Positions 1-41,395 of a DNA stretch of 64,000 nucleotides are shown here, piece by piece (the stretch's first letter is position 1; each line of letters begins with the position of its first letter). The translations under genes and the position numbers were made by a program. The notes under the pieces are model-generated. The model did not search any database, had not been told where the DNA came from, and worked only from the letters and a program-made list of their open reading frames with translations. Source of the stretch: Escherichia phage A5-4; the sequence record OP744025; one strand, 5' to 3'.

Positions 1-185
1 TTACTACAACTTATGAGCAAGATCGCCGTTGGATTAATCCGGCCTGTATTGCATCGCCTGAGGTTGAAGCTATGCCGGAAGGTGAGGAATTGACAGAAGA
101 AGACTTGCAAGAAGTAAAAGAAGTTATGAGTTACATGATTGATAATCTGGACGCTGAAAACTTGCAACGTGCCTTACAAAAATAA
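1..185 (+). CDS. 3' end of an upstream gene (partial), hypothetical protein
   Basis: Open frame 3 runs from window edge to TAA at 183-185; acidic C-terminus; co-oriented with following early block. Confidence 0.35.
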   Translation, partial: TTTYEQDRRWINPACIASPEVEAMPEGEELTEEDLQEVKEVMSYMIDNLDAENLQRALQK

Positions 186-199
186 TTTTAAAAAAGTAG

Positions 200-256
200 T
201 TGACTCGAAGAAACAAAACAAGTAAATTAATCACATGAGGCGGGGAATGGCCCCGC
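200..256 (+). promoter_or_regulatory. TTGACT box plus downstream GC stem-loop (cggggaatggccccg), promoter/stem-loop cassette
   Basis: -35-like hexamer at 200-205, hairpin 240-256 immediately upstream of ORF 273. Confidence 0.45.
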
Positions 257-272
257 TGAACAAAAAGAGATT

Positions 273-653
273 ATGAAAATGGCTAAAAATACTAACGTTT
301 GTGATTACGCTGATCTGGTTACTCTGAATGCAGATTCTAAAATCAACCTGTCAAACGTGGAAGCGGTGCACGTCCTGGCCCGCCGCTGGTTCCAAAAGTT
401 ATATGGTAATACTTATTTCTCTTTAAGTGTGGATGTGGAGATCGCTGGTAAATTGGTAGAAGTAGTTAACGTCCCGTTTAAATATGGTTATGGTGATCAT
501 TTCGATACCGTGGCACTGGAAGAATTTAGCAAGGTTATCAACATGGAAGGAAAAGAGTTTTCAGAGTATAGTTACCTTTCCCGTTTTTGCCGTGACAATA
601 ACATCCCTGTTTATTCGAACGCTGTTGATGTTAAACGCAAAAAAGATATGTAA
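273..653 (+). CDS. hypothetical early protein
   Basis: ORF track; preceded by promoter/stem-loop cassette; no recognisable motif. Confidence 0.6.
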   Translation: MKMAKNTNVCDYADLVTLNADSKINLSNVEAVHVLARRWFQKLYGNTYFSLSVDVEIAGKLVEVVNVPFKYGYGDHFDTVALEEFSKVINMEGKEFSEYSYLSRFCRDNNIPVYSNAVDVKRKKDM

Positions 654-659
654 TTATTA

Positions 660-718
660 TTGACAGTACATAGAAAACAAGTAAACTGTATTACATAGAA
701 AGCGGGAACACTTCCCGC
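660..718 (+). promoter_or_regulatory. TTGACA box plus stem-loop (gcgggaacacttcccgc) cassette
   Basis: TTGACA 660-665; perfect 7-bp stem hairpin 702-718 just upstream of ORF 741. Confidence 0.5.
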
Positions 719-740
719 TTATATTTCAGGAATAAGAGAA

Positions 741-992
741 ATGATCGAACAAATCAAAACTACGACGGCTAACGTAACGGGTACAATATCGCACTTTATT
801 AGTGATGAATCGCGGGGCGTTCCTTATTGTGCAGTACATGTAAACAAAAATGGCGACTACTGGTTAACGGCGTATGGATCTTATTCTTTCGGACGTAGTG
901 CACACCAAAAGATCCTGGATAAAGTACAACCAACGGGTAAAAATATTACCGCTGAGATGTTTAATAAATCACTTGCAAAGTTAAAAGCGTAA
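741..992 (+). CDS. hypothetical early protein
   Basis: ORF track; RBS-like aagagaa upstream of ATG. Confidence 0.55.
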   Translation: MIEQIKTTTANVTGTISHFISDESRGVPYCAVHVNKNGDYWLTAYGSYSFGRSAHQKILDKVQPTGKNITAEMFNKSLAKLKA

Positions 993-1053
993 AGTATAAT
1001 ACATCACATCAGGCGGGGAGTGTTTCCCCGCCACAAAATGAAAGGCCAACAAA

Positions 1054-1233
1054 ATGAAATCAAGCATGATGGTAGCGACTGTAAACATTATCATTGGTAA
1101 CGGAACTGGACACCACGAAATCATAAAAAACAAGGCTTACTCTATTAGCTCCCTCAAAAACGACATGCGTTTATCTTTGGGCCAAATCCGCGCTTACTTT
1201 CGTGAAGGCTATCAGAAAAAAGTAGCAAATTAA
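1054..1233 (+). CDS. hypothetical small protein (59 aa)
   Basis: Hand-translated ORF MKSSMMVATVNIIIGNG...; preceded by hairpin ggcggggagtgtttccccgcc at about 1012-1032; below the 60-aa track cutoff. Confidence 0.4.
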   Translation: MKSSMMVATVNIIIGNGTGHHEIIKNKAYSISSLKNDMRLSLGQIRAYFREGYQKKVAN

Positions 1234-1293
1234 TAGTTGACGCAAAGGTCATTTTAATTTAATCTATAACAAATCGACAAATGAGGCATAATC

Positions 1294-1596
1294 ATGTTTA
1301 CCAAAGCAAATGAGTATTTCTTTTTAGATTTACTTGATGAAAGTATCTTTGTAGCTATGGGCAAAAAGTCAATGGTCTTTAAACGCAAAAAAGATAATGG
1401 TGACTTTGAAGATAGCGAAGCCGTGCTAACAGTCAAGGAAGGTAGAGATCCTGCTACGTCTGTTTTAATCTACACCTTGACCAACGGCGGTGAAGTTATC
1501 GCATCAGGTAGTAGCCATCCGATCCCAAAATCGGAAGTGAACACTGTAATTATTGGTTTTGTTGTAGCTTGTTTCTACGAGGAAAAAAGCAAATGA
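1294..1596 (+). CDS. hypothetical early protein
   Basis: ORF track; TTGACG box about 55 nt upstream. Confidence 0.55.
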   Translation: MFTKANEYFFLDLLDESIFVAMGKKSMVFKRKKDNGDFEDSEAVLTVKEGRDPATSVLIYTLTNGGEVIASGSSHPIPKSEVNTVIIGFVVACFYEEKSK

Positions 1597-1757
1597 ATCC
1601 GCAAAATTTATCTTATGTAAACTGGCCCAATAAGGCTGAGAAGAAAGAAAACTTGAAACGTCTGGTTAACTTTTATCGTGAAGCTGGTCATAGTAAAGTA
1701 ACAGCGGTTAAAATGGCAAAGCGCCACCTTAACAAGCCAAGTACTAAACTAATTTAA
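1593..1757 (+). CDS. hypothetical small basic protein
   Basis: Internal Met of track ORF 1569..1757; ATGA stop/start overlap with the preceding gene suggests translational coupling. Confidence 0.45.
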   Translation: MNPQNLSYVNWPNKAEKKENLKRLVNFYREAGHSKVTAVKMAKRHLNKPSTKLI

Positions 1758-1764
1758 AAACTTG

Positions 1765-1800
1765 TTGACGTTGGCTTGTGCCGTACCTATAATGGACGGC
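1765..1800 (+). promoter_or_regulatory. sigma70-like promoter TTGACG-N17-TATAAT with the -10 inside an inverted repeat
   Basis: TTGACG 1765-1770, TATAAT 1788-1793; inverted repeat gccgt...acggc 1780-1800. Confidence 0.55.
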
Positions 1801-1828
1801 ATAGGCAAACGAAATAGGATTTATAGAA

Positions 1829-2035
1829 ATGAAAAAGAAAATTGTATATAATATTATTAGCTTTATCGCAACTATCCTCCTGGCTATTGCTGGTCTATCT
1901 TTGATTGTTGCAGTAGGATCTCTGTTTCCTGGGGCAATAAGTATTAGCATAGCTTTCGCCGCATTGTCTGTTTTTACAGGGTATGCAGGGATTAAAGTTA
2001 CTTATTGGTCAGAAGATTACAAATATTCAAACTGA
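1829..2035 (+). CDS. small membrane protein (two predicted TM helices)
   Basis: ORF track; protein almost entirely hydrophobic. Confidence 0.55.
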   Translation: MKKKIVYNIISFIATILLAIAGLSLIVAVGSLFPGAISISIAFAALSVFTGYAGIKVTYWSEDYKYSN

Positions 2036-2048
2036 ATTGAGGTGTAAG

Positions 2049-2198
2049 ATGTACAAGCTATTAACCTGGGAAACAGAATCATCGTCACCGATCAGCCGGA
2101 CCTTTTTTGATTTGTGCACGGCTTACAGGCTGGCAAAGGGAGGGTATCATAAGGCCCAAATCATTGATGAATTTAATGTTATCCTTTATGAATTTTAA
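2049..2198 (+). CDS. hypothetical small protein
   Basis: Internal Met of track ORF 1983..2198, chosen to avoid overlap; gaggtgtaag RBS-like run before ATG. Confidence 0.4.
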   Translation: MYKLLTWETESSSPISRTFFDLCTAYRLAKGGYHKAQIIDEFNVILYEF

Positions 2199-2327
2199 TC
2201 AATTCATATACTTAAAAGAAAGTTAGAAAAAGTTTTAAAAAGTGGTTGCAACAGGTATTGGATAGTAGTATAGTACTTTCAACGGGGCGAGATGGCCCAA
2301 AACGAAAAAACTTGAAAGGTGATTATC

Positions 2328-2420
2328 ATGATGGCAATTTTCTTAATTTCTCTTCTGGTCGCTGTATGTTCTGCCACTGCTGCCGCTGTACTTTATGACA
2401 CCCGCTACAATGAGGAATAA
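2328..2420 (+). CDS. hypothetical 30-aa hydrophobic peptide
   Basis: Hand-translated MMAIFLISLLVAVCSATAAAVLYDTRYNEE; aaggtga RBS; coordinates approximate. Confidence 0.3.
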   Translation: MMAIFLISLLVAVCSATAAAVLYDTRYNEE

Positions 2421-2425
2421 TAAAA

Positions 2426-2644
2426 ATGAATATTGTCAACATTACAGGTAAGACCGAGATCCTTAAGAATCTTGCGCCAGGTGAGTCCACCGTATGGATC
2501 TGCAAAGATGGCGAAGTAGAAAAACAAATGAGATTGTTTACCGCTATTTGTTGTCGGTTAAATATGAAAGTTACACAAATCCGATCGATGATTGTTAGTG
2601 TGGGAAACATTCCGACTGAATGCATAATTCTTACAAAGATTTAA
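2426..2644 (+). CDS. hypothetical early protein
   Basis: ORF track; co-oriented, tight spacing. Confidence 0.5.
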   Translation: MNIVNITGKTEILKNLAPGESTVWICKDGEVEKQMRLFTAICCRLNMKVTQIRSMIVSVGNIPTECIILTKI

Positions 2645-2720
2645 AAATAGCTTTACAACAACGATAAAATCAGTACAATACAAATCAGGCAATAAAGCCA
2701 ACTAAAGAAAGGTAAAGACC

Positions 2721-2960
2721 ATGCAAACTATTATCACTAAATTTCTTCCTCCTACGAATACCCGTGGCGCTCGCATCAAAGCAAAATGTTGGTTGACAGA
2801 TATCACTATCGCCTATCCGGTAGCCGAGATCAACGAAGCCCATAAACTGGCGGCAGAAGTGTTAATTACAAAATTGAAGATGACAACAGATATTGATTGG
2901 AAAATTGTTGCAAGTGGTGAAACACCGGACGGATCAGGTTATGCATTTATCATCAAATAA
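2721..2960 (+). CDS. hypothetical early protein
   Basis: ORF track; aaggtaaag RBS-like run. Confidence 0.55.
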   Translation: MQTIITKFLPPTNTRGARIKAKCWLTDITIAYPVAEINEAHKLAAEVLITKLKMTTDIDWKIVASGETPDGSGYAFIIK

Positions 2961-2963
2961 TTG

Positions 2964-3019
2964 TTGACAACAGCAAAGTAAGCGCGTAGTATTCATTTTA
3001 CAGGGGCGACAAGCGCCCC
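2964..3019 (+). promoter_or_regulatory. TTGACA box plus stem-loop (ggggcgacaagcgcccc) cassette
   Basis: TTGACA 2964-2969; hairpin 3003-3019; ORF starts 3029. Confidence 0.5.
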
Positions 3020-3028
3020 GCTTATCAG

Positions 3029-3310
3029 ATGAGACAAATCATGAAAATATCATTGGACGTTGCAATCAAGGCCATCGAATCCGGTTACACTCTGGTTAAG
3101 GACGATAAGGCTAAAATCGTGCATCACGTTAACAAGGAAACAGGCGAAAGCATGATCACATATAAAGCCGCCTACTTTCTCCAATCAGTAGCAGATCCGC
3201 GCCTGCAACGCCAGGTTACGGCGGCTATCGCTAAAAAATTATGTGCTTTACAGGGTACAAGTTTTAACGAGATCGCCCCGTGTTTTGATTGGTCAAGCTT
3301 GAAAAAATAG
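3029..3310 (+). CDS. hypothetical early protein
   Basis: ORF track. Confidence 0.55.
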   Translation: MRQIMKISLDVAIKAIESGYTLVKDDKAKIVHHVNKETGESMITYKAAYFLQSVADPRLQRQVTAAIAKKLCALQGTSFNEIAPCFDWSSLKK

Positions 3311-3311
3311 T

Positions 3312-3368
3312 TTGACAATACGCAGTTATCTGGTAAAGTGTACTACATAGCGCGGAAATACTTCCCGC
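3312..3368 (+). promoter_or_regulatory. TTGACA box plus stem-loop cassette
   Basis: TTGACA 3312-3317; hairpin gcggaaatacttcccgc about 3352-3368. Confidence 0.45.
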
Positions 3369-3387
3369 CATTAATGAGGATAATTTA

Positions 3388-3525
3388 ATGAAAACTTTCA
3401 ACGCAACAGCCTCGACAATTGGTTATATTATTACAGTGCAAGCCGTAGATCTGGTAGCAGCAGCAAACAAGATTAAAAGAATGATCCCGCTAGGTAGTGA
3501 ATTTTCCGTTTGGGAAGTAAAATAA
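3388..3525 (+). CDS. hypothetical small protein (45 aa)
   Basis: Hand-translated ORF ending TAA 3523-3525; aggataat RBS-like. Confidence 0.4.
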   Translation: MKTFNATASTIGYIITVQAVDLVAAANKIKRMIPLGSEFSVWEVK

Positions 3526-3528
3526 TTC

Positions 3529-3590
3529 TTGACAATAGTTTGTTACTTGATAGAATGTATTTCGTAGGGCGGGGCAATGGAGCAACGCCC
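3529..3590 (+). promoter_or_regulatory. TTGACA box plus stem-loop cassette
   Basis: TTGACA 3529-3534; hairpin gggcg...cgccc 3568-3590. Confidence 0.45.
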
Positions 3591-3608
3591 ATTAATGAGG
3601 CTAGCATC

Positions 3609-3713
3609 ATGTTAGAGAAAATTTTCACGGTTGCAGTGGTTGGCCTGGCGTTATCGGTTGGAGTGGTTGCAACTATGGCTAATATGATCCTATCTTCCCA
3701 CGGTATCGGTTAA
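3609..3713 (+). CDS. small single-TM membrane peptide (34 aa)
   Basis: Internal Met of track ORF 3510..3713, downstream of the promoter cassette; hydrophobic. Confidence 0.4.
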   Translation: MLEKIFTVAVVGLALSVGVVATMANMILSSHGIG

Positions 3714-3725
3714 GAGAGACACATC

Positions 3726-4112
3726 ATGAAAACAGAAATCATTATTGAAATCATCAACGGTTACAAAGAGGCTTTTATCTTTGCTGAATCAGCCAGGAAT
3801 CACGAAGGTGATTTTATAGATGACATGACTGATTATGATTTTTCAGATCAAGCCCAGCAACGGATCATTCGTGACGTGGCGGCTTTTTGTGACGCCAATG
3901 ATGCCGCTATCTCTGAGGCAATGAGCGACGGCGCAACAGCCAACCAGATCGGGAATGATTTACATTTTACCCGTAACGGTCACAGCGTAGGCTTTTGGGA
4001 TCGCCCTGAGATATACACTACTAACACGGCTAACCGTTTGACCAATGCCGCTAAATTTATGCCAAACGTGTCAGCCTACATTGGGAAAGATAATCTGATT
4101 TATATTGAATAA
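3726..4112 (+). CDS. hypothetical early protein
   Basis: ORF track; acidic protein. Confidence 0.55.
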   Translation: MKTEIIIEIINGYKEAFIFAESARNHEGDFIDDMTDYDFSDQAQQRIIRDVAAFCDANDAAISEAMSDGATANQIGNDLHFTRNGHSVGFWDRPEIYTTNTANRLTNAAKFMPNVSAYIGKDNLIYIE

Positions 4113-4118
4113 AAAGTA

Positions 4119-4173
4119 TTGACAAGCTGAATCAACCTGACAAGATGTATCACATAGGGGCGATAAACGCCCC
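4119..4173 (+). promoter_or_regulatory. TTGACA box plus stem-loop (ggggcgataaacgcccc) cassette
   Basis: TTGACA 4119-4124; hairpin 4157-4173. Confidence 0.5.
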
Positions 4174-4193
4174 ATAACAGAAAGGGTAATCTT

Positions 4194-4388
4194 ATGACGT
4201 TAGCAACATGTACCGGATCAAAAATTGCTTGCTTTGAGTTTATGGAAGACTACCACACGACCGCAATCACTGACCAATATATTACAGTGATCACGCGTGA
4301 CGGTATCGCCTGGCATGTTCCGGTTTATGATGGGGATACCTATGAAGTCACCGACAGCGACGGCAATACAGCTATCTTTGTTGTCTAA
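4194..4388 (+). CDS. hypothetical early protein
   Basis: ORF track. Confidence 0.5.
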   Translation: MTLATCTGSKIACFEFMEDYHTTAITDQYITVITRDGIAWHVPVYDGDTYEVTDSDGNTAIFVV

Positions 4389-4400
4389 GGGGGAAACACT

Positions 4401-4628
4401 ATGCACAATAACATCATTACCGATCGTGCCGCCACTATGCGCCCTGGCGATCGGGCACGTTTACAGGTTGGCGCTTATCCGTTCCCTACTTATGACTTTT
4501 GCAAGGTGACGGCAGTCGAAAACAATCCCTTTGATCCTGATACCGTGATCATCTGGTACGAAGGAAGGGGAAATAAGTATGAAGATGTTTTATGGCGGGA
4601 TGAGCATATCAACATTATTCGTTACTAA
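4401..4628 (+). CDS. hypothetical early protein
   Basis: ORF track; gggggaaacactATG RBS. Confidence 0.55.
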   Translation: MHNNIITDRAATMRPGDRARLQVGAYPFPTYDFCKVTAVENNPFDPDTVIIWYEGRGNKYEDVLWRDEHINIIRY

Positions 4629-4746
4629 TCGCCACCTAACAGCCTAAATAGTAGGAGGTAATGCAATCCCCTACTCAATGAGAATGGAGCGCCCTGGCTT
4701 ATGCTGGGGCGTTTTATGTTGTATGGAAATAATTTAGAAAATAAGC

Positions 4747-4803
4747 TTGACGCCGGGAATGTTAGCGCGTATAGTTTATCACATAGGGCGGCAATAGTGC
4801 CGC
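4747..4803 (+). promoter_or_regulatory. TTGACG box plus stem-loop (gcggcaatagtgccgc) cassette
   Basis: TTGACG 4747-4752; hairpin 4788-4803. Confidence 0.5.
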
Positions 4804-4823
4804 TCATAATTGGAGTAGAGATC

Positions 4824-4997
4824 ATGGCAATTCTGGCGAAAGATGTAAAAGTAGGTATGACCTTTAATGATTGTGAAGTTGTCTATGTTGCCGCGCACGG
4901 CGACGGTATCATTACCATTGAAACAGAACACTTTGATCGAGATTGTGGCGAGATGGAATATTTTTCTTGCGAGTATCATGAAAACGATGAGTTTTAA
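4824..4997 (+). CDS. hypothetical small protein
   Basis: Internal Met of track ORF 4701..4997, chosen because the promoter cassette lies inside the longer ORF. Confidence 0.4.
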   Translation: MAILAKDVKVGMTFNDCEVVYVAAHGDGIITIETEHFDRDCGEMEYFSCEYHENDEF

Positions 4998-5001
4998 ACT
5001 A

Positions 5002-5056
5002 TTGACACTGTAAGTAATTGTGTTAATATTTTTGTGTAGGGCGGCAATGTTGCCGC
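5002..5056 (+). promoter_or_regulatory. TTGACA box plus stem-loop (gcggcaatgttgccgc) cassette
   Basis: TTGACA 5002-5007; hairpin 5041-5056. Confidence 0.5.
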
Positions 5057-5077
5057 TCACTGACTGGAGCTATCACC

Positions 5078-5479
5078 ATGACCTTTACAATCACCTCTTA
5101 CACTGACGTTGCCAGCATTGCTAAAACTTTCGGCCCTGAAGCCCTTAAATATGCGGTATCCAATGGTAATCTGACAAAAGAGGAATGTTATCTGATTGGA
5201 AGCTGTAAACGTTGGGCGGTATCTCGTAACATCGAGATTGAAAACGTAAATGATGGCAACATCGAATATAGCGTTGATGCAGTATTCCAAGTTGTTGATT
5301 TAGGTGGTATCTATAATACCAATCTTAATGATGTGCGTATCGTTCGCACTGGCTTTGGGGCTTATGATGTTCCAGTTCGTGAAGCTATGGAAAAAGGTTA
5401 TATTAATCCAGCCATTTTAAGCATGATCATGACTGAGGCCAAACAACGTAACGAGATACGGGCTATCCTGGGCCTGTAA
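5078..5479 (+). CDS. hypothetical early protein
   Basis: ORF track. Confidence 0.6.
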   Translation: MTFTITSYTDVASIAKTFGPEALKYAVSNGNLTKEECYLIGSCKRWAVSRNIEIENVNDGNIEYSVDAVFQVVDLGGIYNTNLNDVRIVRTGFGAYDVPVREAMEKGYINPAILSMIMTEAKQRNEIRAILGL

Positions 5480-5500
5480 TGAAATATTAATGGAAAACTA

Positions 5501-5552
5501 TTGACACGGATCGTCAATATGCTAATATTTATCACGTAGGGCGGCAACGCCC
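5501..5552 (+). promoter_or_regulatory. TTGACA box plus stem-loop (gggcggcaacgcccc) cassette
   Basis: TTGACA 5501-5506; hairpin 5539-5552. Confidence 0.5.
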
Positions 5553-5578
5553 CAGATTAATAAAAATAGGAAATAAAT

Positions 5579-5785
5579 ATGACTACTTCAATGATCAGAT
5601 CTTCCGACATTAAAAAGGCTTTATCTGCATTGCGTTATCATCATAGAATGAAAGTAATCAACGATGAGAGCTATCTAGATTCATCGTTAGAAAGCGATAC
5701 GTTGGAAGCCATTTCAAAATTATCTGATTTGCATAAACGCATGACCGAAAGCAACCGATCCGACTTCATAGGGGGCGAAATATGA
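5579..5785 (+). CDS. hypothetical early protein
   Basis: ORF track. Confidence 0.5.
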   Translation: MTTSMIRSSDIKKALSALRYHHRMKVINDESYLDSSLESDTLEAISKLSDLHKRMTESNRSDFIGGEI

Positions 5786-6042
5786 GCATTGCAATGTTAA
5801 TCAATACCGTAGAAGAGGCGAAAGCATTAAAGTTACGTGTTGAACTGATTGATCAGCCAGGTGGAGATCTCCTTGTACAAATCTATCCCCCAAAGGATGA
5901 TTCTGGCGCTTATGATTGGTGCTACTCTGACACGTTCGAACAAGTAGACATTAAAGCAATAACATCATTTATCAATAGGGCTATACTTGAGCAAACGATA
6001 GAACTTAACGGGATGTTAAAAACACCCTGGCACATTTACTGA
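5782..6042 (+). CDS. hypothetical early protein
   Basis: ORF track; 4-nt overlap with the previous ORF. Confidence 0.5.
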   Translation: MSIAMLINTVEEAKALKLRVELIDQPGGDLLVQIYPPKDDSGAYDWCYSDTFEQVDIKAITSFINRAILEQTIELNGMLKTPWHIY

Positions 6043-6053
6043 GTTCGACAAAA

Positions 6054-6079
6054 GGGCTTGACTTGTTCAGCCCTTTTTT
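6054..6079 (+). terminator. intrinsic terminator (gggct...agccc then T6)
   Basis: Hairpin 6054-6073 followed by TTTTTT immediately after the stop of ORF 5782..6042. Confidence 0.6.
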
Positions 6080-6219
6080 GCTATTCTTATCAAACGGGCG
6101 GCACCTGGGAACAGGGGGGAGGTAATCACTGGACGACTCCGCTATATAGTGATAGTAAATAGCTATCAATAATCTCCAAAAATAAAATAAAACCTATCGA
6201 GTCTTTACAATTCTTTCTA

Positions 6220-6265
6220 TTGACACAACAACCGCATTACAGTATTATTTATCTCGTAGGGCAGC
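6220..6265 (+). promoter_or_regulatory. TTGACA promoter-like box with conserved upstream ttacaattct motif
   Basis: ctattgacac at about 6218-6227; same upstream motif recurs at about 7246. Confidence 0.4.
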
Positions 6266-6521
6266 GAAGCAGTGATGTAAAGTAGTTACTCTATGATGTA
6301 AGTTCTGAGAAGTCGAATCCGATAAAGTATCAGAAAGTTTCTAAGTTTTCGAATCGTCCAGATGAAAAAGGCTGGCAAGTGTTGAGAAAGGGCACGTTGA
6401 GTAAGTCCTGAACAGGGGCGCTCCTAGACACCTTCTACTGAGATTGCGATCGAAGTGTTAAACTGTGAGAAACGATAAAGAGTACCAGGAAAGAAAGAAG
6501 TAAAAGAAGTGAAAAAGATTG

Positions 6522-6570
6522 TTGACACGAAGGTAAGTTTTGTACTATTATCTATCTTGTAGGGCAAACT
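6522..6570 (+). promoter_or_regulatory. TTGACA promoter-like box
   Basis: gttgacacg 6521-6529; tactattat -10-like; ORF at 6596. Confidence 0.45.
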
Positions 6571-6595
6571 TCAAGAACATTAAAAAGGGTACAAA

Positions 6596-6871
6596 ATGTT
6601 ACAGCTTAACGCCAAATTAGACAAAGAAATCACTGAGTTTTGGGATATGGTAGTGGCTACAGATGTTGACGGTGTAGCAAGTCCTTACCTCAATAACATT
6701 GAGTATCATAATGTTGCAGCTATGAATGCAGAATACGCAGAAGAAGGCGGCGCGGATAAGTTTGCTAAAAGCAACGGTTTCACTGATGCTAACGACATGA
6801 TGCAATCAGTTTTGTGGCAAGCCCAGGAAGATTTTGAAGAAAAAACTCTTGAATTCGCCAGACGTTCATAA
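6596..6871 (+). CDS. hypothetical protein
   Basis: ORF track; aaaaagggtacaaaATG. Confidence 0.55.
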   Translation: MLQLNAKLDKEITEFWDMVVATDVDGVASPYLNNIEYHNVAAMNAEYAEEGGADKFAKSNGFTDANDMMQSVLWQAQEDFEEKTLEFARRS

Positions 6872-6926
6872 TAGAATAATCAAACGGGCCGAAAGGCCCA
6901 CTAATTGACCTAACAGGATTAACATC

Positions 6927-7196
6927 ATGAATCGCATCGACCAGCTTAAAGTAGTTCAGCATATGGCTTACCGTATCCTTGAAGTTCAGAAAGGGAGCAA
7001 AAAAGAAGTATGTGAGAAGGCTTATAAGGTATTCAGCCACAAAGCTGATGATTGGAAGTTGCAGAAAGTAAAAAAGGCCGATATCCTGGGATACCTTGAA
7101 GAAGAGATCCGCATTGCAGACCAAAAACAGATTCGTCGTGATGAAGCAGAACATAACCAGGCCTGGCAAGAATGGTTTAAAGGCTACACTAAGTAA
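6927..7196 (+). CDS. hypothetical protein
   Basis: ORF track. Confidence 0.55.
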   Translation: MNRIDQLKVVQHMAYRILEVQKGSKKEVCEKAYKVFSHKADDWKLQKVKKADILGYLEEEIRIADQKQIRRDEAEHNQAWQEWFKGYTK

Positions 7197-7259
7197 AATT
7201 GAAAACGGGGGGCCATATGGTCCCTTTGTAAATATTCCATTAATTTACAATTCTCCCTA

Positions 7260-7290
7260 TTGACAAGAAAGTCAATTTTGCAGTATAGTT
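7260..7290 (+). promoter_or_regulatory. sigma70-like promoter TTGACA-N18-TATAGT
   Basis: TTGACA 7260-7265, TATAGT 7284-7289; conserved upstream ttacaattctccctat. Confidence 0.5.
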
Positions 7291-7329
7291 ATATCTCTAG
7301 CAGCAAACAACAAAACAAAGGACAACGAC

Positions 7330-7749
7330 ATGAACATCAAATCAACTAATCCGGCTTACTCTTTCGATAACGCTTTTTGTCACGGTAGCGCCGCCAAAGG
7401 TTTTGAAATTGATGGTAAACTGGTTATCGTCAATGTTGATGGGGAAGAGGTTGCAGTTTATCCAGTGGCAGACGTTAAAAGCCGTTTACAATGTCGCATG
7501 GACGTTAATGAATACCGCCTTGATCCGGTTCGTGTCGTTGCCCTGGTCCTGGAAGAAGAAATTAAAGCAATGCAGCACGGTAATAAGTTTATTGGTGATG
7601 CACAGGACAACATGAAAGTAAGCCGCCACAAAGTTAATGAAGCACTGAAAGATTTTGGCTTTAAAGACCTGATTATCAAACGTGATGAAAAATTCCGCTT
7701 TCGTAATGATCTGGCAAATCGCTACTATGAAATCTATGAAGCACTTTAA
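7330..7749 (+). CDS. hypothetical protein
   Basis: ORF track. Confidence 0.6.
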   Translation: MNIKSTNPAYSFDNAFCHGSAAKGFEIDGKLVIVNVDGEEVAVYPVADVKSRLQCRMDVNEYRLDPVRVVALVLEEEIKAMQHGNKFIGDAQDNMKVSRHKVNEALKDFGFKDLIIKRDEKFRFRNDLANRYYEIYEAL

Positions 7750-7764
7750 GAGGTAAGACAACAA

Positions 7765-7787
7765 GGGGCCGCAATAGCGGCCTTTTC
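7765..7787 (+). terminator. intrinsic terminator (ggccgc aata gcggcc then TTTT), overlapping the next TTGACA box
   Basis: Hairpin 7767-7782 and T-run 7783-7786, directly after the stop of ORF 7330..7749. Confidence 0.5.
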
Positions 7788-7869
7788 TATTGACACCTGC
7801 TAACCATTCCTTTAATATGCATCTTGTAGGGCAAGCAATAACGCAAGCCCACAAATAGGACAAACCATC

Positions 7870-8067
7870 ATGACCATCGCTAATCAACTGATCGCCGTAT
7901 TGAATGAAGCCAAATCTAATGAAATCGATGTACAGATCAAAGAATTGCCCAATGGCCTGATCGGTTGCACTTGCACCTGCTTCGGAAGTGACTACACAGA
8001 GGTAAGCTCTCTAGAATCTCTCATTCGTCACTTGAAATCAATAGTTGAAGATTGGAGAATCATCTAA
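7870..8067 (+). CDS. hypothetical protein
   Basis: ORF track; last plus-strand gene before the non-coding region. Confidence 0.5.
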   Translation: MTIANQLIAVLNEAKSNEIDVQIKELPNGLIGCTCTCFGSDYTEVSSLESLIRHLKSIVEDWRII

Positions 8068-8075
8068 TCAACCAG

Positions 8076-8093
8076 GGGCCGCAATAGTGGCCC
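8076..8093 (+). terminator. stem-loop (gggccgcaatagtggccc), near-copy of hairpin at 7767
   Basis: Same hairpin sequence family after the stop of ORF 7870..8067; weak T-tract. Confidence 0.4.
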
Positions 8094-9280
8094 TTGTCAT
8101 GTCCATCGGTGCGACTCTCCCAACTCTATTAATCCCTTCCCCATTTGGATCATCATAACTTATCTCATCTAATCATTAATCTAATCCCCTTTGGAATCTC
8201 TCCCCCACAAATCTAAACTAATCTGATAGCTTACCATAACATAATCCACAAAGAAAGAACTATTTTGCCCACAAAGAAAGGCAGTTTTAAAGAGATACCA
8301 TTGCCAGAGTATGGAGGTGGCGCGACCGTAGGGAGCGACACTATAAAACGAGTATACCCCTCCTACCGCCCTGCGGTCATCGGTGATAACCGATAACATA
8401 CTGTTATCTGTTCTCTTCGTTTCCTCGTTTTATAGTGTCTATATGTAGTAATCTTTTATTCTTTGTCAACAGATTAATTGGCTTATAGACAATTATTTAT
8501 AGTGATTTATTATGCATAGTTATTGATTATGTATGCAATAAGGATACAATAAGGATACAGTAGCGGTAGTGTAGCGACGCTGTAAATATCAACAAAGAGA
8601 GGCCGTATTTGCCCACAGAATGAACAAGTAAGCAGGGCGGTACGCCCTTTTGCTAGGTAAAACTCTCTTCTCTCTTCTTTCCCAAATAAATTTTTTCTTG
8701 CTTTTATTGCCAGAGTATGGCGGGCGCTCAGGCTATTGATGGCCCTGATGGAGTCGCTCCTGCACAGTTGGGATAGTTCATCGTTGGATAGTCACAAGTT
8801 GGTATTATTCTTCCCACTAGTTGGAACAGGCCAGGCCTGGCAAGGCTTAGAGTCGCCTCACTTGTTGGACGGAAGGAGGGCGCTTGCGGTGCGTATAAGT
8901 TGTATTATGTTAAATGCAGATCGAAATTGGTATTCTAAACCAGATTCAGAAGTCAAGGGAAATCTTTAACTTTATTGTTGGAGTAGCACAACATTTTTCT
9001 TGACAAGTCGAATCAAAGATGTATTGTGGATTGAAAATAAATGAAGATAATGCTTGACTTCTTGGATATTTTGAAAACATCGGACCCCCTCCCCCTCCCC
9101 CACGGTTGCCATGCCTGGCAGCAGTGCCAACGCACTAAACAAAAAAGATGCAAACATCCTCCGCTTTCTCCTCTCCGACAAAAGACAACAGACAAGGCTG
9201 GTTAGACTGGTTAGCCTCTTCAGGCCAGTACCCTTTGGATATATTTGGGCAGGATAAATAATAGACCACCCCCGTAAGAG

Positions 9281-29547: not shown

Positions 29548-30393
29548 TTATTTGCCCCCTTCTTTCGCCGCAGTGATGATCTGTTCAATTAACTCGTCAC
29601 GATAATAAACGTACTGTTCAACACCGAAACATTCCGCAATCTCGTCTAGTTCGTCGAGGTTGTACTCGTCAAAGTCTCGTGGGTTAAGAGTAAAGATGTT
29701 GAATTTTTTGGCGTAGCCTTCGTCGAGGACGATTTCAAATTCTCCCTCTCCGATTTCCTTCGCATCATCAACATCACTCGATTCGATTGACCCTTCAACC
29801 TTAATCCCCCCTGTATTTTGTTGATCGGCTTCCATTTGCTTTTTAATTGCTTCATCTTCAGCGGTCAAACGGGCTTGCATCTGAGAGGAAGTGAAGTAAA
29901 TTTCGCCAGCACGATCAAACAGTTCAACGAGTTCATCTTCTGTCATAACACCCTTGTACAGATCGTAGTATTTCTCTTTGAACAGGTCTTTGTAGAAATC
30001 GCTACGTTTAAATACCAGCGCCGAGTCACCACCCATACTCATCTGAACGTTGTGGAACATATAATGAGAACCTGGACGACAAATTCGAACATGACCAGAT
30101 AAGAAGATCATTGTTGCAGCACTTGCCACTTCACCAATGCCGTGTGTCACAACAGTCGCCTTAGCTTCAGAGATCGCTGTCATGTACATATCTGCGATAT
30201 CACAATAACCACCGCAAGAAGTAATGTATAGATTTACAATATCACCTTCTGGTGCTGAACGAATCAGATCAACAGCCTCAATATGTGCTTCAGGTGAGTT
30301 GTGCAGATCGGTAACATAGATACGCCAATCGTTAGAAGTTACTGGAGATACCCAAATGTTTTTTGCTGGACCATTCATTACGATTTCTTCCAT
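29548..30393 (-). CDS. ClpP-like serine peptidase with acidic C-terminal tail
   Basis: ClpP-like segments NLYITSCGG, GEVASAATMIFLSG, HYMFHNVQ. Confidence 0.45.
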   Translation of the reverse strand: MEEIVMNGPAKNIWVSPVTSNDWRIYVTDLHNSPEAHIEAVDLIRSAPEGDIVNLYITSCGGYCDIADMYMTAISEAKATVVTHGIGEVASAATMIFLSGHVRICRPGSHYMFHNVQMSMGGDSALVFKRSDFYKDLFKEKYYDLYKGVMTEDELVELFDRAGEIYFTSSQMQARLTAEDEAIKKQMEADQQNTGGIKVEGSIESSDVDDAKEIGEGEFEIVLDEGYAKKFNIFTLNPRDFDEYNLDELDEIAECFGVEQYVYYRDELIEQIITAAKEGGK

Positions 30394-30405
30394 ATTAATT
30401 CCCCC

Positions 30406-30876
30406 TTAGCTGATTAAAGTACGGATGCGGGTAGCGTTTTGCAGAACCCAGTCTACTACGATAGAATGGTCAGAGTCAACAATTACTTCATGATGACGTT
30501 TGAACATATCAAGAATCTTTGCTGCTTCGGCAGTATAAAGTGCCGCACGATCTAAAAAGATAATCTGCTCTTTAAGTTCTTCTGTAATCGGACATAACTT
30601 ACTTGGGACCTTGATGGCTGACAAATGTTCTACCAACTCTTTTCGAGTAGAGAACATAATATCAACCTCCTGATCGATACTAAGAGAGCCTAAGAATAAG
30701 CGAGAAAACCATCCACGATACTCATCGTTGTTTTTACGCAAAGTCTTAATTCCAAATATTAACTCTTCGAACAGGGCTGTTGCAATTTCTTCAATACGAT
30801 CAGGAACAATAGCCCCACAATTTTTCAATTCCATCAGTTTACGATGATCAACTGTTGCGTACATACCCTTATCCAT
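30406..30876 (-). CDS. hypothetical protein
   Basis: ORF track. Confidence 0.55.
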   Translation of the reverse strand: MDKGMYATVDHRKLMELKNCGAIVPDRIEEIATALFEELIFGIKTLRKNNDEYRGWFSRLFLGSLSIDQEVDIMFSTRKELVEHLSAIKVPSKLCPITEELKEQIIFLDRAALYTAEAAKILDMFKRHHEVIVDSDHSIVVDWVLQNATRIRTLIS

Positions 30877-30884
30877 ATCACCCC

Positions 30885-31202
30885 TTAAATTCCGATTAAA
30901 TATTTAAACTTCCCGTCGTTCTCTGCGATCTTGTGGATTACATAGAACCAATTTTCAATTCCGTCTTCATCTTCCTCTTTCACACGATCACCAGTTTTCA
31001 ACTCAACCTCGGAAACGTACTCCTTACTTTCAAGAAAATACTTCCACTGAACCATGTCTTTAAAATTACAGATTAGTTTATTTTTGCCATCTGTCGTCCA
31101 AAGGTCCTGATTGACCCACATACCAACAACGAAATTCTTTTCTTTTTTAGGACGACCAAGTGCATAAGTGTTGTTTAACATCTTTGCTTTATCTAAGACC
31201 AC
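30885..31202 (-). CDS. hypothetical protein
   Basis: ORF track. Confidence 0.5.
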   Translation of the reverse strand: MVLDKAKMLNNTYALGRPKKEKNFVVGMWVNQDLWTTDGKNKLICNFKDMVQWKYFLESKEYVSEVELKTGDRVKEEDEDGIENWFYVIHKIAENDGKFKYLIGI

Positions 31203-31842
31203 GTTTTGACTCCAAGTTAACTAAGAAATTCTCAAGCACTGTGATGTTGTCTTCTTTCCAAAGATTAAGTGTTCTTACTCCACTCTTCTTTGCAAGATTG
31301 ACTGCTGTAGCAGTGCCGCCCTTGGGATTGCCCGTTCTTGTTTCCTTTGCGTAGTATATCACAAACTTACTTTGCATCAAGTATGCATTTGAAAGATTTT
31401 TACCAAAAATCTGGTGTACGTTTCTTTCGTGCAACTTCCTTGCCCCCTGACTCAACTTATCCCAACCACCATGAACTTCCTTTATCCATTCCCACCTCAT
31501 TTCCTTATGTTCTGGAAATTCTATATCAATCGCGTTTAGTGAGATATTATACAGATCTTTAAGTCCCTGTCCACCTTTAAAGTTGTCCCAAGGAACATAT
31601 ACCTCTGCAAGTTTGCTCGGCGATTGAGCCATATTACAATCTTCATGAAACCTCTGCATACCCCTTTGGAAGGCTGCATCTGCACCACCTGCACCACCAG
31701 ATCGTAATGTGTACCCAACCCTTGCTAATCTCCAACCTGCATCTTCCATAATTTTTAATATTTCTTCAGGAGTCTCCCTTGAACCTATTCCTGTATAAGC
31801 TGGCACTTTAACCTCCTTCATCTTCAGTTGACCAGTACCCAT
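31189..31842 (-). CDS. DprA/Smf-like (SLOG-type Rossmann) protein
   Basis: Motifs YTGIGSRETP, TLRSGGAGGADAAFQRG and GGTATAVNLAKKSG; start approximate (internal Met). Confidence 0.4.
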   Translation of the reverse strand: MGTGQLKMKEVKVPAYTGIGSRETPEEILKIMEDAGWRLARVGYTLRSGGAGGADAAFQRGMQRFHEDCNMAQSPSKLAEVYVPWDNFKGGQGLKDLYNISLNAIDIEFPEHKEMRWEWIKEVHGGWDKLSQGARKLHERNVHQIFGKNLSNAYLMQSKFVIYYAKETRTGNPKGGTATAVNLAKKSGVRTLNLWKEDNITVLENFLVNLESKRGLR

Positions 31843-32290
31843 TAACTTTTTTCCAAAGCCTTTGGTTATCTGATCCCCTGAATCTTTTAGTTGTAGGTTT
31901 GTTTTCATTATACTTACCGTCCATGATTAAGTCAACGTGTTTCTTTATTTCCTCATCCAAGTCTTCAAAAAGATACCCTGTCCACACCATGATATCTTTA
32001 CTCTCACCAAAGCACAACTTTACTTCCTTGATGATTCTTTTTACAATATCAATATTCTCAGGGTCAAGAGGTTCTCCACCCATAATTGACAATCCACTGA
32101 TAAAGTTTCGAGAAAGATCTTTTTTCAATCTCTCCATATCTTCATCTGTGAATTCTTTTCCATACCTGTATGACCAAGCCTTTTGGTTAAAACAGCCTTT
32201 GCACTTATGGCTGCATCCACTAACCCACAGGGAGGTTCTTACACCCTCCCCGTTGATGAAGTCTGTGCTTTCATACCCGCAGATGTTCAA
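31808..32290 (-). CDS. nrdG: anaerobic ribonucleotide reductase activating protein (radical SAM)
   Basis: Cys cluster GCSHKCKGCFN; position immediately downstream of nrdD. Confidence 0.8.
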   Translation of the reverse strand: MNICGYESTDFINGEGVRTSLWVSGCSHKCKGCFNQKAWSYRYGKEFTDEDMERLKKDLSRNFISGLSIMGGEPLDPENIDIVKRIIKEVKLCFGESKDIMVWTGYLFEDLDEEIKKHVDLIMDGKYNENKPTTKRFRGSDNQRLWKKVNGYWSTEDEGG

Positions 32291-41329: not shown

Positions 41330-41395
41330 TTTAAAAGTGGGGCAACATGCCCCAGCGCCGATAATGATATAAAATTAACTAACCAATGTCAATAA

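Follow-up and report, generated by a model that had tools for sequence, protein, structure and literature searches.

Promoter-early stem-loop (PeSL) cassettes of T4-type phages are the closest described counterparts of the elements reported here. They combine strong sigma70 promoters with stem-loops termed "effective transcription terminators", which have been shown or argued to terminate upstream transcription (PMC2839356, PMC4122927), and in phages PST and nt-1 the stem-loop is placed just upstream of the promoter (PMC4122927). We analyzed a stretch of 64,000 nucleotides (nt) of Escherichia phage A5-4 (record OP744025, hereafter the window), in which positions 200 to 8100 hold an array of cassettes composed of a sigma70-type promoter, a GC-rich stem-loop, and the start codon of a small open reading frame (ORF). 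A first-pass annotation had identified this array with the T4-type PeSLs. The comparison does not support that identity; the cassettes are an analogue of PeSLs with another layout and fall outside the family because they differ from it both in the position of the stem-loop and in lineage.

The cassettes resemble the PeSLs of the pairs RB49/phi1, PST/T4, and nt-1/KVP40 in combining an early sigma70 promoter that is close to consensus and preceded by an A-rich tract with a stem-loop whose first arm is rich in G and whose second arm is rich in C, and in carrying a Shine-Dalgarno (SD) site and ATG at the 3′ end. They are likewise crowded into a variable region, where they precede small ORFs without known function, and indel or replacement junctions fall in them, some within the stem-loop. 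In contrast to PeSLs, the stem-loop here lies downstream of the -10 box, at approximately +3 to +25 of the predicted transcript and within its own 5′ untranslated region (UTR), and has no T-tract. A comparable custom promoter and stem scan located the stems of the RB49 ORF185-211 region at -24 to -6 (in the -35/-10 spacer) or at -16 to +5 (across the -10 box), as counted from the end of the -10 box, with none in the 5′ UTR; like the stems described here, they are without classic terminator tails. The lineages are Vequintavirinae and Stephanstirmvirinae here and not Straboviridae, and no similarity of sequence or model was found: a covariance model of the unit gave no matches in 49 kb of RB49, the PeSL-rich region included, and BLAST with one cassette retrieved 134 phage records, all of them rV5- or phi92-like. 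Only 1765-1800 and 7763-7795 in the window approach PeSL layouts, the latter junction having the "stem-loop just upstream of the promoter" arrangement. Terminator activity and mini-circles were demonstrated for RB49. They appear to work like PeSLs as recombination modules, and it is unlikely that their hairpin does the same job.

Other known systems share single features with the cassettes. The 5′-terminal stabilizing stem-loops of ompA and papA also place a GC stem a few nt from the 5′ end, ahead of an unstructured leader and a ribosome-binding site (RBS); those are single elements with measured half-life effects, whereas dozens of copies per genome with predicted starts, promoter-less copies among them, exist here. 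A similar 5′ stem-loop is present in the leader of T7 gene 10. Integron attC sites and gene cassettes offer another parallel, in which each small gene is flanked by repeats capable of forming hairpins and is exchanged as a module. The units here differ from them in carrying their own promoters and in junctions that look like homologous crossovers in shared sequence; no attC-like sites or integrase were seen in the early block or in the annotations of relatives, the rest of the 64-kb window not having been screened for integrase. Promoter-coupled terminators likewise pack both elements, stem-loop and promoter, into one short spacer that separates tandem genes (Fletcher et al., bioRxiv 10.64898/2026.08.19.745784). 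In those elements, transcription ends approximately 10 bp (base pairs) ahead of the following start site and the promoter draws in part on the T-tract, whereas here the stem follows the start site and no T-tract is present, only 7763-7795 being alike.

The cassette array of the early block

Sequence identity places the phage as an rV5-like member of the Vequintavirinae whose nearest relatives are Septuagintavirus phages: positions 1 to 9000 of the window are 97% identical to Escherichia phage A7_1 and 91 to 94% identical to A73, UPEC06, and LTH01, all of which are assigned to this subfamily in their records. The paper on Septuagintavirus describes a new clade inside the Vequintavirinae and leaves promoters and hairpins unmentioned. 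The early block contains 24 small ORFs of unknown function on the + strand (273-8067). Ten of these were tested against Pfam, with no matches, and their PHROG matches are exclusively families of unknown function. No paralogy was found among the products of the 24 ORFs, which means that the repeats did not arise as a side effect of gene duplication. The block is closed by a hairpin at 8072-8095, beyond which lies approximately 1.8 kb with little coding potential. In the relatives, the same kind of array goes on upstream of the point matching window position 1, and the window therefore contains only its last 8 kb.

The promoter scan found 51 promoter-like sites in positions 1 to 10000, compared with 26.5 ± 5.9 in shuffled sequences, and all sites scoring 10 or 11 of 12 lie on the + strand within 200-7818. 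Seventeen sigma70-type promoters with scores of 9 to 11 of 12 were located on the + strand of 200-8100, in addition to one weak box at 1236 (Table 1). AT-rich tracts such as tttAAAAAnnng are found upstream of the -35 box, and three of the promoters (3529, 5002, and 5501) have an extended -10 box. A stable GC hairpin follows 11 of the 17 promoters, with folding energies of -7.8 to -17.7 kcal/mol and, in 9 of these 11, z scores of -2.3 or lower against shuffles. Eight of the stems are perfect and three are interrupted; two further hairpins, in the cassettes at 2246 and 2652, are marginal (3 to 4 bp), and no downstream hairpin was detected at five boxes (1236, 1765, 6220, 6522, and 7260). When strict criteria were applied (a perfect stem that begins 7 to 14 nt past the -10 box and has 5 or more bp, including 4 or more GC pairs), 7 of the 19 promoter-like sites in 1-8100 passed; in the remainder of the window, 1 of 47 did (Fisher P = 4e-4). 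Such strict stems have a background rate of 0.9% (binomial P = 2e-10). The array proposed by the first-pass annotation is thus present far above chance. Its count of "at least a dozen" elements stands if the two marginal hairpins are included and falls to 11 if stable hairpins alone are counted. Its placement of an element before "nearly every" small ORF was overstated, as 17 or 18 of the 24 ORFs have a promoter and 11 to 13 have a promoter with a hairpin.

The geometry agrees with what had been described earlier, the distance from the -35 box to the hairpin being approximately 33 to 40 nt and that from the hairpin end to the ATG 15 to 26 nt; the hairpin begins 10 to 12 nt after the -10 box. 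The 5′ half of the consensus unit reads tttAAAAAnnng, TTGACA, 16 to 17 nt, TAnnnT, and gtat(C/T)AC(A/G)TA, and its 3′ half consists of a G-rich arm, a loop of 3 to 7 nt, a C-rich arm, a purine-rich leader with an SD site, and the ATG. The hairpin consensus quoted previously proved approximate, an actual example being GGGCGGCAatagTGCCGCTC with a G.T pair. An upstream motif reported as shared by several elements recurs five times in its shorter form CTATTGACA and only twice in full, TTTACAATTCT..CTATTGACA, at 6204-6225 and 7244-7265. From 6000 to 8100, the right-hand third of the block, genes are followed first by a stem-loop and then by a promoter.

The covariance model, run with filters off on the 64-kb window, returned 12 + strand sites, all within 223-7854 and none in 8.1-64 kb. 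Across the window and the loci of eight relatives it returned 105 sites, all on the + strand, with the unit occurring 6 to 18 times per locus in relatives from two subfamilies. A custom promoter-plus-stem scan found 10 to 15 units per 13- to 18-kb locus in the nearest Vequintavirinae relatives, 7 in W70, and a similar density in Phapecoctavirus (phiWec181, tuntematon, and ZCKP1) and Justusliebigvirus (UAB_1 and phi92). The unit is rarer in FV3 (Vequintavirus), with 2 model matches and 6 by a looser scan. Identical cassettes ahead of non-homologous ORFs, which the first-pass annotation had suggested looking for, were also found. Rfam gave no match in 1-10000, either at gathering thresholds or at E values up to 1, and tRNAs only in the whole window. 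The cassettes are unannotated in the database records examined: most of the records matched by BLAST have no annotated feature beneath the cassette match, and the phi92 record annotates ribosome-binding sites and not the cassette elements. The rV5 paper lists promoters and terminators as separate items, and no promoter-hairpin cassettes or transcriptomes were found in the literature on Vequintavirinae, phi92, and PVP-SE1, although an earlier description elsewhere is possible.

Pairing in the predicted 5′ leaders

A set of 68 unique promoter-plus-stem cassettes was compiled from the window and the eight relatives' loci, and the covariance model was built from it. In 58 of the 68, the stem starts 10 to 12 nt downstream of the -10 box, and a purine preceded by a pyrimidine occurs at position 8 after the -10 box (motifs ACA and ACG). 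As sigma70 transcription is expected to start at a purine 7 to 8 nt past the -10 box, the stem would begin at approximately +3 to +6 of the predicted transcript. Folding of 11 predicted 5′ UTRs placed the hairpin at +3 to +6 (+4 in 8 of the 11) and left the SD site and AUG unpaired in 10; the exception is the 660 cassette, in which a further, weak helix of 4 bp (724-739) extends into the purine-rich leader just ahead of AUG 741. The leaders are purine rich (70%) and unstructured.

The G-rich arm comes first along transcription in 67 of the 68 stems, a polarity shared with PeSLs, and the cassettes could on this ground be true PeSL-type composites whose stems end or attenuate upstream read-through and leave each ORF on its own promoter. 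An RB49 stem-loop of a G-run and a C-run, without an obvious T-tract, cut lacZ expression like a strong terminator (PMC2839356). Promoter-less hairpins after stop codons occupy a terminator-like place, and a stem-loop precedes the promoter at 7763-7795, 7207-7265, and 4688-4752. We nevertheless regard termination as unlikely, since a hairpin downstream of the promoter would attenuate its own transcript equally, and the RB49 stems lie before or across the -10 box and never at +3. The 8 nt that follow the stem average 1.3 T and 4.3 A, so that the tails are A rich, whereas the terminator scan needs at least 5 T in the tail; it called no cassette hairpin, and its sole + strand site (1880-1893) is inside ORF 1829-2035. 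Separate hairpins with T-rich tails elsewhere in the block (4688-4720, 6050-6079, and 7763-7786) suggest a division of labor. An intrinsic (Rho-independent) terminator was rejected as the identity of the cassette hairpins because they lack a T-tract.

As many as 33 distinct stem sequences and 20 distinct loops were found at the one position, with stems of 5 to 10 bp and loops of 3 to 7 nt. Compensatory base changes, anticipated by the first-pass annotation, are present among orthologues: AAGCGGGAA/TTCCCGCTT is replaced by AGGCGGGAA/TTCCCGCCT, which includes a change of A-T to G-C, and the outer pair of GGCGGGG/CCCCGCT is G.T, G-C, or A-T. In the model-based alignment, the covariation score is 0.223, compared with 0.132 in shuffles (0 of 500 reach 0.223), and is above that of all slid registers. 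Only 76% of the alignment cells are paired because the fixed 8-bp covariance model misregisters stems of other lengths, and a register-free stem finder was therefore used in addition. Pairwise identity amounts to 0.88 in the -35 box, 0.71 in the -10 box, and 0.66 in the 5′ arm, while the promoter spacer is not conserved (0.35). Pairing rather than sequence is conserved in the stems, and the occurrence of 33 different stems at one position, together with the compensatory changes between orthologues, argues for selection on pairing.

Palindromes that overlap the initially transcribed region of strong promoters might also serve, at +3 to +25, as operators in the DNA to which a dimeric phage repressor binds to switch early transcription off. 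A "transcriptional regulator" is annotated nearby in relatives, and terminator palindromes can double as transcription factor binding sites (bioRxiv 10.64898/2026.08.19.745784). Such operators appear very improbable given that the stems vary in sequence, length, and loop while pairing persists, that their polarity tracks the direction of transcription, and that promoter-less copies exist; the operator hypothesis was rejected because the stems have no common half-site.

The same kind of stem is found without a promoter directly after a stop codon, both in the relatives and at 6886-6899 of the window. The hairpin end lies a median of 21 nt from the ATG with a promoter (interquartile range [IQR], 19 to 22) and without one (IQR, 19 to 26). 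This equal spacing indicates that stem, leader, and ORF form a unit by themselves, the promoter being an optional upstream half, and it suggests an added or alternative role in insulating the RBS. The stem could then be primarily a translational insulator or standby element, fixed approximately 8 to 10 nt upstream of the SD site to keep the RBS single stranded irrespective of the preceding sequence and gene modules independent of context, with any effect on mRNA stability secondary. The spacing irrespective of promoter, the unpaired SD and AUG in 10 of the 11 folded UTRs, and the purine-rich, unstructured leaders all fit this arrangement; against these, the constant spacing may merely reflect common descent of the leader, and the role partly overlaps, and is compatible, with protection of the 5′ end. 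We consider it quite unlikely that insulation is the primary role. A common TAATCAACA(A/G) motif (stop codon plus tcaaca) stands before several of the promoter-less hairpins, at L003 7260, L004 6798, L006 8186, and L007 5974 and 7336 among the relatives' loci and at 6874-6885 in the window; this motif could be a processing site or merely shared ancestry.

Gene exchange at the cassettes and a proposed dual role

Homology blocks shared with the eight relatives end at, among others, 2961, 3360-3387, 3563-3572, 4124, 4166-4184, 4792-4815, 5021-5036, 5511-5547, 6262, 7284, and 7785. Fifteen of the 23 breakpoint clusters touch cassettes, which make up 19% of the region (binomial P = 2e-6), and the hairpin is the site of 8 of these 15. 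Compared at the sequence level, explicit junctions lie inside the shared GGGCGGCAA and GGGGCG arms. The 5501 cassette corresponds to two pieces of A73, a promoter and a promoter-less hairpin, joined within the shared GGGCGGCAA; the gene that separates them in A73 is absent from the window, and the 4119 cassette displays the same joining pattern. At 2961, three relatives have instead a promoter-less hairpin adjoining the stop codon and, behind it, another gene. Within one genome, hairpins and leaders that are identical also stand ahead of non-homologous ORFs. The gene content of the early region differs between close relatives, and the junctions of gene gain, loss, and replacement coincide with cassettes, which bears out the earlier description of the block as a plastic accessory region.

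Single modules of the window are 87 to 92% identical to Stephanstirmvirinae phages; for 2961-3382, 3721-4124, and 7284-7785, the nt identity to Phapecoctavirus and Justusliebigvirus phages (L006-L008) is 82 to 92%, whereas the nrdD region (30000-34000) is only approximately 69% identical to the same phages. This contrast points to recent exchange of modules between subfamilies. Together, the block ends within cassettes and the high identity of modules across subfamilies support the idea that single small genes have been shuffled as modules at the cassettes. The repeats may be the cause of this recombination and not merely places where it is tolerated. Junctions that fall in repeats, and many near-identical copies across genomes, would also be expected of non-functional recombination scars or selfish repeats homogenized by gene conversion, with the hairpin incidental. 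That explanation appears improbable, as pairing is kept over the 33 different stems with compensatory changes, and the maintained pairing, the fixed position relative to the -10 box and ATG, and the uniform polarity indicate selection on the structure itself.

We propose that each unit is a portable early expression cassette, in which an A-rich UP-like tract and a near-consensus sigma70 promoter would direct a start at the purine 7 to 8 nt after the -10 box, followed by a GC stem-loop 2 to 5 nt into the transcript, a purine-rich open leader with an SD site, and a start codon approximately 21 nt past the stem. As RNA, the 5′-proximal stem-loop would make the 5′ end less accessible to RppH and RNase E and keep the RBS clear of upstream context, and this protection and insulation would make a small early mRNA stable and translatable wherever its gene lands. 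As DNA, the core from the -10 box through the stem and leader, repeated within each genome and across lineages, would offer short homology through which recombination could insert, delete, or replace single genes. RppH and RNase E require single-stranded 5′ ends, which is why 5′ secondary structures stabilize Escherichia coli mRNAs (PMC3997798; Emory 1992, Bouvet and Belasco 1992, and Arnold 1998, as cited therein), and a GC stem near the transcript start with an open RBS fits such protection. By this analogy, the stem may have a stabilizing role at the RNA level. The combined reading, in which a transcribed 5′ stem-loop protects or insulates the mRNA and doubles as a recombination junction, seems to us evenly balanced, and we hold its two components, the architecture of a promoter followed by a transcribed hairpin and the use of the cassette as a junction, each with more confidence than the whole.

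Several observations weigh against the combined reading. Promoter-less hairpins after stop codons cannot act at a primary 5′ end, so a second role would be needed (at a processed 5′ end, as a 3′ barrier, or as an insulator). The hairpin is not obligatory, as five of 17 promoters, the weak box at 1236 counted among the five, have none. If transcription started at position 6 instead of 8, up to 5 unpaired nt would precede the stem and protection may weaken. A wobble test for strand-specific RNA structure on the unique stems gave 11 G.T against 6 A.C or C.A (approximately 5 to 6 against 2 independent events, counts of cassette copies not being counts of independent events; an earlier count from fewer loci was 8 against 7), which is merely suggestive and too weak to separate the RNA level from the DNA level. 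Purifying selection alone would also leave breakpoints in intergenic DNA. The right end of the W70 deletion (988 to 7629) is inside ORF 7330-7749 and thus not cassette mediated; its left end (988) lies in the spacer of promoter 973, which makes it only a partial counterexample. No transcriptome study of the group was found among papers mentioning Vequintavirinae. A comparison of + and - strand folding energies (P = 3e-8) was set aside because weak flanking pairs were included.

More speculatively, the unit may be a lineage-specific RNA module common to rV5- and phi92-like phages, whose 5′ protection and RBS insulation make genes "plug-and-play" and whose DNA also provides the crossover site for exchange by homologous recombination, moving single anti-host genes between subfamilies; a phage or host factor may in addition recognize the conserved 5′ (A/G)UAGGGCGG start. 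We regard this extension as doubtful. If the shuffling is real, the cassette-driven modular exchange known from T4-type phages also runs in a different group of myoviruses, possibly with an independent origin, and the rV5/phi92-type group is large and therapeutically relevant. The cassettes would mark exchange points of accessory genes, probably for host takeover or anti-defense, and would provide a compact natural part of promoter, 5′ hairpin, and RBS for expression in E. coli. If the protective role is true, they would also be a concrete test case for the systematic use by phages of 5′ stem-loops that shield early mRNAs from host decay.

Feature inventory and neighboring observations

Table 1. 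Promoters, cassettes, and hairpins of the early block of Escherichia phage A5-4 (window coordinates, all on the + strand; -35 and -10 denote promoter boxes)
Feature	Position	Elements	Remarks
Cassette 1, perfect stem	200-272	-35 TTGACT 200-205; -10 TAAATT 223-228; hairpin GGCGGGGaatggCCCCGCT 239-257; ATG 273	-13.4 kcal/mol; z -3.0; covariance-model match 223-262
Cassette 2, perfect stem	660-740	-35 TTGACA 660-665; -10 TAAACT 682-687; hairpin AAGCGGGAAcacTTCCCGCTT 700-720; ATG 741	z -3.7; model match 682-723; L004 orthologue with compensatory A-T to G-C
Cassette 3, perfect stem	973-1053	-35 TTGCAA 973-978; -10 TATAAT 995-1000; hairpin GGCGGGGAGtgtTTCCCCGCC 1012-1032; ATG 1054	-17.7 kcal/mol; z -3.1; matched by covariance model
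Weak promoter-like box	1236-1293	TTGACG 1236-1241; poor -10; ATG 1294	No hairpin; under scan thresholds
Promoter	1765-1828	TTGACG-17-TATAAT 1765-1793; ATG 1829	No 5′ UTR hairpin; sole inverted repeat GCCGT..ACGGC (1780-1800) spans -10 box
Promoter, marginal hairpin	2246-2327	TTGCAA-17-TATAGT; 4-bp GGGC/GCCC hairpin 2285-2298; ATG 2328	-8.4 kcal/mol
Promoter, marginal hairpin	2652-2720	TTTACA-16-TACAAT; ATG 2721	Stem just 3 bp
Cassette, perfect stem	2964-3040	-35 2964-2969; -10 TAGTAT 2987-2992; hairpin GGGGCGacaagCGCCCC 3003-3019; ATG 3041 (alternative ATG 3029)	A73, UPEC06, and LTH01 homology ends at 2961, directly before -35 box
Cassette, interrupted stem	3312-3387	-35 3312-3317; -10 TAAAGT 3334-3339; hairpin 3350-3368; ATG 3388	Weakest hairpin, -7.8 kcal/mol; z -1.2; model match 3334-3373
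Cassette, interrupted stem	3529-3608	-35 3529-3534; extended -10 TAGAAT 3551-3556; hairpin GGGCG..CGCCC with inner helix 3567-3590; ATG 3609	-15 kcal/mol; breakpoints 3563-3572
Cassette, perfect stem	4119-4193	-35 4119-4124; weak -10 CAAGAT 4141-4146; hairpin GGGGCGataaaCGCCCC 4157-4173; ATG 4194	Junction 4166-4184 against A73 and UPEC06, which have an additional gene there
Terminator-like hairpin	4688-4720	AGCGCCC..GGGGCGTT, then T-rich sequence	Upstream of promoter 4747
Cassette, perfect stem	4747-4823	-35 TTGACG 4747-4752; -10 TATAGT 4770-4775; hairpin GGGCGGCAatagTGCCGCTC 4786-4805; SD GGAG; ATG 4824	z -3.9; top model match, 49.8 bits; breakpoints 4792-4815
Cassette, perfect stem	5002-5077	-35 5002-5007; extended -10 TAATAT 5024-5029; hairpin GGGCGGCAatgtTGCCGCTC 5039-5058; ATG 5078	Breakpoints 5021-5036
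Cassette, perfect stem	5501-5578	-35 5501-5506; extended -10 TAATAT 5523-5528; hairpin GGGCGgcaaCGCCC 5539-5552; ATG 5579	
Terminator-like hairpin	6050-6079	AAAAGGGC..GCCCTTTTTT; T-rich tail	After ORF 5782-6042; read directly from sequence
Promoter	6220-6264	TTGACA-17-TATTAT; conserved start-site motif GTAGGGCAG	No stable hairpin; no ORF before 6596
Promoter	6522-6595	TTGACA-18-TATTAT; GTAGGGCAA; ATG 6596	No hairpin
Promoter-less hairpin	6886-6899	GGGCCgaaaGGCCC	After stop of ORF 6596-6871; 27 nt before ATG 6927
GC hairpin	7207-7226	GGGGGGCCatatGGTCCCTT	After ORF 6927-7196; upstream of promoter 7260
Promoter	7260-7329	TTGACA-18-TATAGT; ATG 7330	No hairpin
Terminator-like hairpin	7763-7786	AAGGGGCCGCaataGCGGCCTTTT; T-rich tail	Abuts -35 box of promoter 7790; four relatives share a homology breakpoint at 7785
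Cassette, interrupted stem	7790-7869	-35 7790-7795; -10 TAATAT 7813-7818; GTAGGGC motif; hairpin 7829-7850; ATG 7870	z -4.1; weak model match
Terminal hairpin	8072-8095	CAGGGGCCGCaataGTGGCCCTTG	Closes early block; -18.9 kcal/mol; repeat common with 7763-7786 (D7)

Recognition of the cassettes corrects gene starts. The A7_1 coding sequence (CDS) A71_255 (L001 9594-9929, equivalent to 4662-4997 of the window) spans three elements, a terminator-like hairpin (4688-4720), a promoter (4747), and a second hairpin (4786-4805), and judging from the GGAG SD site the true start of its equivalent in the window is probably ATG 4824. In A73 (L002, approximately 8693-8895), the orthologue of window ORF 5579-5785 is apparently unannotated; it starts after the promoter-less hairpin GGGGCGGCAACGCCCC.

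W70 is without approximately 6.6 kb of the block (window 989-7628), and its 741-992 ORF is fused to the C-terminal part of the 7330-7749 ORF in a 354-nt chimeric CDS (window 988 and 7629-7641; L005 8670-9023). The 6220 promoter (TTGACA-17-TATTAT with a GTAGGGC start motif) is followed by no ORF for approximately 340 nt. A small RNA downstream of it was considered and rejected, as segment 6256-6521 is not structured (z +1.5); two readings are left for 6220-6595, a long leader of the promoter and gene that come next, or a non-coding transcript without structure. Outside the block, a lone cassette-like unit is located at 41392 on the - strand (TTGACA-17-TATCAT, 10 nt, then GGGGCAtgtTGCCCC), with the G-rich arm first along its own direction of transcription.

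An exact 18-nt repeat, TTAAACGCAAAAAAGATA, occurs at 631-648 and 1379-1396 within two non-homologous ORFs and encodes KRKKD in both. By a rough estimate, not computed with a tool, a chance origin of an exact 18-mer repeat within 9 kb is very unlikely, and the repeat may be a recombination remnant. The approximately 1.8 kb with little coding potential (8100-9900) separates the + strand early block from - strand genes and contains direct repeats (8244-8273 with 8588-8617, and 8300-8317 with 8706-8723). It is kept only in the closest relatives, being absent from the phi92-like and Phapecoctavirus loci, and may be the "non-coding" box on the rV5 map. At the far end of the window, ARAGORN identified a + strand tRNA cluster at 61271-63124 (Met, Tyr, Gly, Gln, and Pro), and Rfam added a sixth, weaker tRNA match at 61271-61349.

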